This document shows positions 33,047-33,091 of a stretch of DNA of 64,000 nucleotides, piece by piece. The translations under genes were made by a program, and so were the position numbers. The first letter of the stretch is position 1; the number at the start of each line of letters is the position of its first letter. Source of the DNA: Eledone cirrhosa. Lineage: Eukaryota. The notes beneath the pieces were generated by a model. It had not been told where the DNA came from. It saw nothing but the letters and a program-made list of their open reading frames with translations, and did no database searches. Where the stretch lies: assembly GCA_964016885.1 (NCBI GenBank), contig OZ024761.1, positions 11,966,001 through 12,030,000 on the forward strand. The letters are read 5' to 3'.

Positions 33047-33091
33047 AACGGTGCTGATGATAGCTAACAAGCTTGAAACTAGTACATCGTT
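33047..33091 (+). ncRNA. Minimal type I hammerhead ribozyme (first of 22 copies); predicted cleavage after GUA at 33084
   Basis: Stem I aacggtg/catcgtt (7 bp, one G-U), CUGAUGA, stem II agc-taacaa-gct, GAAA, palindromic ACUAGU stem III, NUH = GUA. Confidence 0.88.

Follow-up and report, generated by a model that had tools for sequence, protein, structure and literature searches.

A dispersed, non-coding 468-bp tandem unit of Eledone cirrhosa with a palindromic type I hammerhead: a likely non-LTR retrozyme and candidate passenger of Penelope-like elements

Dimer-dependent palindromic hammerhead ribozymes in tandem repeats have reportedly been known since Forster 1988. The double-hammerhead mechanism would be unsurprising here, because it was proposed in that year for newt and viroid RNAs and has since been tested in axolotl and Penelope-like element (PLE) ribozymes. 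A palindromic helix III is general in repeat-type hammerheads, according to the available parts of PMC3088659, PMC6765202 and PMC2837043. In axolotl HHR_Amex1, whose helix III is one pair closing a palindromic tetraloop, the monomer is reported to cleave to 6% in 1 h and the dimer much better (PMC7229834); counting against a general benefit of dimers, eight of nine Xenopus retrozyme dimers are given as showing no cleavage in the accessible text of bioRxiv 10.64898/2026.07.22.740005. The partnership between PLEs and retrozymes has so far been argued from co-occurrence and pLTR similarity only, as far as the accessible literature goes. Our literature search (of main texts, with incomplete coverage) found no paper on the family described below or on tail footprints in retrozymes, and the word 'tail' is absent from the available text of that preprint and of the review PMC7761336.

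The window (the whole 64,000-nucleotide stretch of E. cirrhosa DNA analyzed) contains a tandem array in which the 45-mer at 33047-33091 is identical in 22 of 22 copies. The original prediction had placed a hammerhead ribozyme within this 45-mer; the catalytic core does lie there, and the ribozyme runs beyond it. In the first complete unit the entire type I hammerhead, extended helix I included, spans approximately 33023..33109 on the forward strand, on which all elements of the motif lie, and it is repeated in all 22 copies. The 5' strand of helix I (33048..33053, or 33047-33053 in the motif read-out) pairs with 33085-33090 (the read-out giving the 3' strand as 33085-33091). GG and a 3-nucleotide bulge, UAA, occupy 33043..33047, opposite U33091 and CC at 33092-33093; the bulge, which reads UAU in most relatives, stands at the position of the loop 1 tertiary element and may make the corresponding contact. 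The catalytic core from C3 to A9, CUGAUGA, occupies 33054..33060 and is followed by helix II (33061..33074), which comprises U.U at 10.1-11.1, three Watson-Crick pairs (AGC/GCU) and a 6-nucleotide loop, UAACAA; the base of the helix is this U.U, and not G-C. The GAA of the core (33075-33077) leads into the palindrome ACUAGU of helix III (33078..33083; A15.1, CUAG, U16.1), and cleavage is predicted after the GUA triplet, between A17 at 33084 and position 33085. As originally claimed, helix III is a self-complementary hexamer too short for a stable hairpin: within one molecule ACUAGU can make no more than the A15.1-U16.1 pair around CUAG (or two pairs capped by a 2-nucleotide loop), and between two copies it gives a 6-bp helix. 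A second palindrome, CAAGCUUG (33068..33075, forward strand), overlaps helix II, is longer than ACUAGU and is likewise predicted to pair between copies.

The motif is not a product of chance, because the type I descriptor is nearly absent from shuffled sequence (0 of 2,000 matches in shuffles of a unit-sized stretch; 36 matches in the 580 kb of 58 random 10-kb genome stretches versus 0-2 in ten shuffled rounds), and because the 3.0-Gb genome contains 10,672 occurrences of the motif's 32-nucleotide core, with a reversed control of 0. CUGANGA, GAAA, an NUH triplet, three helices and an open helix I are all present in the sequence, as expected of a type I hammerhead. Rfam returns no hammerhead match at its gathering score; below it, the only hammerhead model is Hammerhead_HH9, narrowly defined and with a helix III of 3 bp, which scores 18.5 and 19.7 bits where 52 are needed. 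Alignment to the HH9 consensus nevertheless agrees in the 6-bp helix I, the bulge position, the 4-bp helix II and the 6-nucleotide loop 2. These dimensions fit the canonical, tertiary-stabilized type I hammerhead, with U.U at 10.1-11.1 and a presumed tertiary contact. The original prediction had called the ribozyme minimal, and this label does not hold. PLE-type minimal hammerheads (min-HHRs) lack helix III, and their helix II is long and their loop 1 ill defined, according to the part of PMC4209133 available; the window motif has canonical HH9 dimensions and a covarying extended helix I, and it lacks the min-HHR combination of absent helix III and loop 3, a helix II of 7-8 bp, a helix I of 4-5 bp and G10.1-C11.1. 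Judged from its sequence, the window ribozyme is a canonical animal hammerhead whose palindromic helix III is weak, and its self-cleavage is a predicted activity.

The window holds other hammerhead-like motifs. At 29660-29715 (forward strand) lies a true minimal hammerhead of another repeat family, with a GUU triplet and a helix III of only ACGU. A family with a long helix II and a CCACTGG helix III interior is present at 27886 and 29335 (forward strand), with minus-strand copies near 27800 and 29300 forming inverted pairs. At least three other families contribute additional hammerhead-like motifs, at about 45290-45320, 28105-28135, 21260-21285, 50965-50990, 49245-49275 (reverse strand) and 49385-49425 (forward strand); their types include a GGAC/GAGCC interior, a long helix III with internal CTAG, and a TATGTA interior. 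The sole Rfam match at gathering level in the search was tRNA-derived (26889-26952, forward strand, 30.3 bits); it is probably a SINE head. Matches to microRNAs were discarded as artefacts of TA repeats. Minisatellites without hammerhead cores occupy 12343-13969, 15403-16249, 17159-18508 and 59800-62700 (units of 69, 31, 65/123 bp and short period).

Variation across the family respects the ribozyme fold. The predicted fold has a long helix I extension, and in a hand-picked set of 18 related copies, 17 of them distinct, that covers three subfamilies, helix I is 98% paired and its extension 93% paired. The third pair of helix I from the core is G.U in nine sequences, U.G in five, A-U in two and C-G in one. 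The covariation score exceeds that of all 500 shuffles, with the caveat that the sequences are related; three pairs changed on both sides, a count matched by 254 of the 500 shuffles. The three subfamilies are approximately 80-90% alike, with helix I compensated and the core intact (the search patterns themselves impose part of the conservation of the core letters). Differences between subfamilies concern N7 (U or C depending on subfamily), loop 2, helix I, where they are compensated, 10.1/11.1 (an older subfamily, which also has a GUU triplet, shows C-G or C.A) and H17, and none concerns the core or helix III. Variants above 3% in four sequencing runs made up of contigs likewise fall on N7, loop 2 and helix I and are absent from the core and helix III, an absence that at the six helix III positions is not significant taken alone.

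We compared monomeric and dimeric folds with a nearest-neighbor energy model, which overstates the monomer penalty because it includes neither tertiary contacts nor Mg2+. For one motif, forcing helix III gives -17.9 kcal/mol versus -26.7 for the free ensemble, a cost of 8.8 kcal/mol. For a two-copy window transcript the energies are -189.0 kcal/mol (double hammerhead), -181.5 (one monomeric site), -172.8 (two monomeric sites) and -192.8 (free ensemble), and the double hammerhead is 7.9-8.5 kcal/mol lower than one monomeric site in five of five tandem pairs from two subfamilies (a sixth locus yielded no tandem pair). In a scan of all 16 loop dinucleotides, an intercopy helix III reaches a probability above 0.01 only for the four palindromic ones, and the window motif combines an unstable helix III with a palindromic loop, as expected of a double hammerhead. 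Two predictions count against the dimer: only approximately 2% of the ensemble predicted for two copies is double hammerhead, and the intercopy CAAGCUUG/AAGCUU duplex dominates in the window with a probability of 0.56, a pairing predicted to compete with the active double hammerhead.

Comparison across families bears on the same question. The 4-nucleotide helix III interior is palindromic in four of five families (CUAG, CGCG, GUAC and UGCA; p = 0.016 if the families are independent, which they may not be), and the one non-palindromic family has GAAC or GGAC. That family counts against a need for palindromes, being the commonest in the 58 random 10-kb stretches (10 of 36 matches). Within the window family we found no compensatory palindromes, and no palindrome enrichment among double changes of the loop dinucleotide (two of 17, with one third expected); the first base of the loop shows 279 single changes, which resemble decay. 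We consider it likely, on model energies, that the window ribozyme cleaves better as a double hammerhead, because the double form is about 8 kcal/mol lower and four of the five same-size families are palindromic. A strict dependence on dimers we grade lower and hold to be doubtful. The earlier expectation that cleavage is efficient only in multimeric transcripts is thus kept as dimer enhancement, the best reading, and loses its 'only', since newt and salamander monomers with an extension cleave.

A ribozyme adequately active as an extended monomer, in which contacts between loop 1 and loop 2 keep the core together, a one-pair helix III with CUAG is sufficient and the palindrome contributes little, seems to us unlikely. 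In its favor are the canonical dimensions of helix I, bulge and loop 2, the pairing of the extension across the 17 sequences, the success of the non-palindromic family in the same genome, and published activity: newt and salamander monomers with a looped helix I extension cleave (PMC6155905), as do most invertebrate retrozyme ribozymes as monomers (PMC7761336), in the available text of each. Against these, the invertebrate motifs are described with a stable helix III, the one-pair palindromic type manages 6% per hour, the U.U at the base of helix II weakens the window ribozyme further, and palindromes recur across families.

The ribozyme belongs to a unit of 468 nucleotides from cut site to cut site (33085..33552, forward strand), for which a coding role was not found: the unit region contains no ORF longer than 99 amino acids and lacks the reverse transcriptase and GIY-YIG ORF of an autonomous PLE. 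A 58-amino-acid frame upstream of the ribozyme was considered as the end of a GIY-YIG ORF and rejected, as it is never longer than 58 amino acids in 150 of 150 scored matches. Also upstream of the ribozyme, at 32998-33012, the window unit reads AG/GAAAGT where one subfamily has a splice-donor-like AG/GTAAGT; PLEs often carry an intron upstream of the ribozyme. The forward tandem arm (32799..43310) holds 22 ribozyme copies, a number made uncertain by a 200-N gap at 35758-35957; it is 5'-truncated at unit position 183 and ends at unit site A. Of its 21 cut-to-cut units, 16 are identical, two have one substitution, two are off by 1-2 bases in length and one crosses the gap. A divergent inverted arm without ribozyme (32553..32800, reverse strand) covers unit positions 65-312, with its end at site B. 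The two fixed 3' ends, at unit positions of about 253 (site A) and about 312 (site B), enclose a 59-nucleotide 'tail' (33338..33396, forward strand), and the insertion is flanked by (TA)n-rich target DNA at 30905..32552 on the left and 43311..43555 on the right. Other inverted, truncated elements with a similar tail-at-one-end appearance lie in the (TA)n tract of the window at 43555-43750, 43825-43880 and 45060-45770.

The unit is dispersed genome wide. The helix II family numbers 29,191 cores and one sister subfamily 14,601 (reversed controls of 0), and unit size across the family is 420-520 bp. These non-coding tandem units, a few hundred base pairs long, with one type I hammerhead each and many loci, have the genomic properties of a non-LTR retrozyme. 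We examined 99 listed cores in the first 19.6 Mb of one contig (C1), dropping the last, cut cluster, and found 60 clusters, of which 47 are without two cores on one strand and 13 have two or more; arm pairs in these clusters are divergent in eight cases and convergent in none. The claim that tandem organization is functionally required is therefore overstated: 47 of the 60 clusters are without a same-strand partner, two ribozymes are needed for unit excision under any mechanism, and tandems also arise as a product of the integration route.

Insertion ends are sharply defined. Among 91 distinct arm ends (from loci that were mostly first matches of pattern and protein searches, and biased toward young copies), site A (unit position 245-261) accounts for 45, site B (294-312) for 42 and other positions for four; TA-rich DNA adjoins 78 of the 87 site A and B ends. 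Of 37 two-armed insertions, 34 have one arm per site, one has both at A and two have an unclassified end, so that 34 of the 35 classifiable ones end once at A and once at B. The window locus follows this rule, with its inverted arm at B and its array at A. A tail at one end, an inverted 5'-truncated arm and a microsatellite target are marks of PLE mobilization, and PMC8557442, in its available text, describes tails at one end, inverted truncated arms and (TA)n targets as hallmarks of PLEs. If DNA-level recombination had spread the unit as a satellite DNA, the ribozyme would be incidental; local DNA amplification does occur, as an old, heterogeneous array of approximately 50 kb with G17 cores illustrates, and this reading is very improbable and largely refuted by the paired A/B arm ends, which, like the dispersed insertions, the (TA)n targets and the combination of fixed 3' with variable 5' ends, are marks of retrotransposition. 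The array in question (L233, C3:12.27-12.32 Mb) consists of a 468-bp-type unit and is probably inactive and expanded at the DNA level.

We then consider what was copied into DNA. If cleaved linear monomers were the template, insertions starting at the cut site would be expected. In the window subfamily only 187 copies lack A17 versus 82 at a control position, and 54 of the 100 non-A17 matches listed come from one old G17 array; two of 30 sampled copies are truly truncated at the cut site, and no strong stop at the cleavage site was found among window-subfamily copies. Copies run across the cut site, which fits a circular template. In 20 arrays, unit length is often uniform per locus and varies between loci (466, 468, 472, 474 and 476); it is equal in both arms at L220, L221, L227, L230 and (one unit apart) L225, and lengths are mixed at L216, L217, L218, L219, L223 and L233. 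A dimer-periodic pattern suggested by alternating 422/424 spacings at L216 was not upheld by unit types. Uniform arms fit rolling-circle copying of one monomer circle, and uncut multimeric RNA from a uniform source array could also give alike, homogeneous arms. A stable circle does not need dimer dependence, as had been supposed for the released monomer, because coral and mussel circles accumulate though their single ribozymes cleave at approximately 0.8 and 0.1 per min (PMC7229834, available text).

The PLE partner is only a candidate, because the two autonomous PLE families examined (with 713-aa and approximately 740-aa frames) show no likeness to the unit beyond TA repeats. The first (L088-L093; for example, L089:2834-4975) is young and high in copy number, and its 713-aa frames are intact and bear Hydra-clade motifs. 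The protein of this family has 1,231 relatives and no Pfam or PDB match, and its assignment to PLEs rests on motifs compared with the accessible part of PMC8557442; its own hammerhead-like core appears altered at position 4, and a splice-donor-like motif similar to that of the unit lies in its 3' region (L032, about 1450-1470). Multicopy non-autonomous PLEs are known (PMC8557442), and one purified PLE has a tail between two internal reverse transcription start sites and cuts both target strands (PMC11167929), as described in the portions available. The same source (PMC11167929) reports that the PAc hammerhead cleaves only with protein and that catalytic mutants still insert in vitro, which favors a further alternative: that without protein neither form of the ribozyme is more than weakly active, or that it is near vestigial, and that a PLE protein assists it or copies uncut multimers, so that spread would not require cleavage. 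The poor activity of PLE min-HHRs even as dimers (PMC4209133, available text), the predicted competition from the helix II palindrome and the lack of a stop at the cut site point the same way, whereas the intact core (its conservation partly search-imposed) and compensated helix I in three subfamilies, and the rarity of inactivating G17 outside one old array, argue against it; we judge it improbable.

Our main reading, to which we assign a probability of roughly 0.6, is that the 468-bp unit represents a dispersed non-coding family, likely a non-LTR retrozyme, whose ribozyme would act much better as a double hammerhead and which is likely inserted by PLEs. The core, helices and palindrome are present and conserved across subfamilies. 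In a transcript of at least two units, neighboring copies are predicted to swap helices I while their two ACUAGU hexamers form a 6-bp helix III, in a fold that is nested, not a pseudoknot. Cleavage would release unit-length RNA, which a host ligase would circularize, and the lone circle would cleave slowly. A PLE reverse transcriptase/endonuclease would then nick (TA)n DNA and prime at internal sites A and B; priming twice while running round the circle would yield two divergent, 5'-truncated arms of identical units, one per site, and the tandem layout would be both product and fuel of the cycle. More tentatively, and with somewhat less than an even chance, a PLE protein (possibly of the Hydra clade) primes twice on one monomeric circle and rolls both ways, and a dimer-dependent ribozyme switch destroys multimers and spares the circle. 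If true, two-site circle priming would support the PLE-retrozyme partnership with direct mechanistic evidence, and thousands of genomic copies would record the integration of animal retrozymes. The family is young, has approximately 29,000 cores and has insertion ends that are exact and can be counted, which makes it a clean system for two questions raised in the literature, namely whether PLEs mobilize non-LTR retrozymes from circles and what prevents a circle from cutting itself.

The family combines features of several described systems, compared here with the available text of each source. With newt satellite 2 and axolotl retrozymes it shares a type I hammerhead, short tandem units and a looped helix I extension (PMC7229834), and its units are longer (420-520 bp versus 330-350 bp in amphibian retrozymes; PMC7229834). 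HHR_Amex1 is closest, having, like the window motif, a one-pair helix III and a palindromic tetraloop, and HHR_Amex2 has the same U.U at the base of helix II (PMC7229834); the window motif, known here from sequence, joins the weak helix III of the former with the U.U of the latter, and has a GUA/GUU triplet. PLE hammerheads also have a palindromic helix III, and a dimeric mode has been proposed for them; a Drosophila virilis Penelope variant carries a 2-nucleotide palindromic insertion, as does the window motif (PMC4209133). With endonuclease-bearing (EN+) PLEs (PAc Poseidon, PMC11167929; the Hydra clade and the non-autonomous Chlamys/MRC1, PMC8557442) the family shares tandem and inverted 5'-truncated arms, a tail at one end, two 3' ends internal to the unit and (TA)n targets, and multicopy head-to-tail non-autonomous forms comparable to the window unit are known among them (PMC8557442). 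It differs from them in having no ORF, in a tail of about 59 nucleotides versus 30-40 bp, and in that both arms can be long arrays. Coral and mussel non-LTR retrozymes (PMC7229834) resemble it in having thousands of copies, a low GC content, units a few hundred base pairs long and a highly self-paired circle (predicted for the window unit); unlike our reading of the window ribozyme, theirs cleave as single motifs, at about 0.8 and 0.1 per min (PMC7229834).
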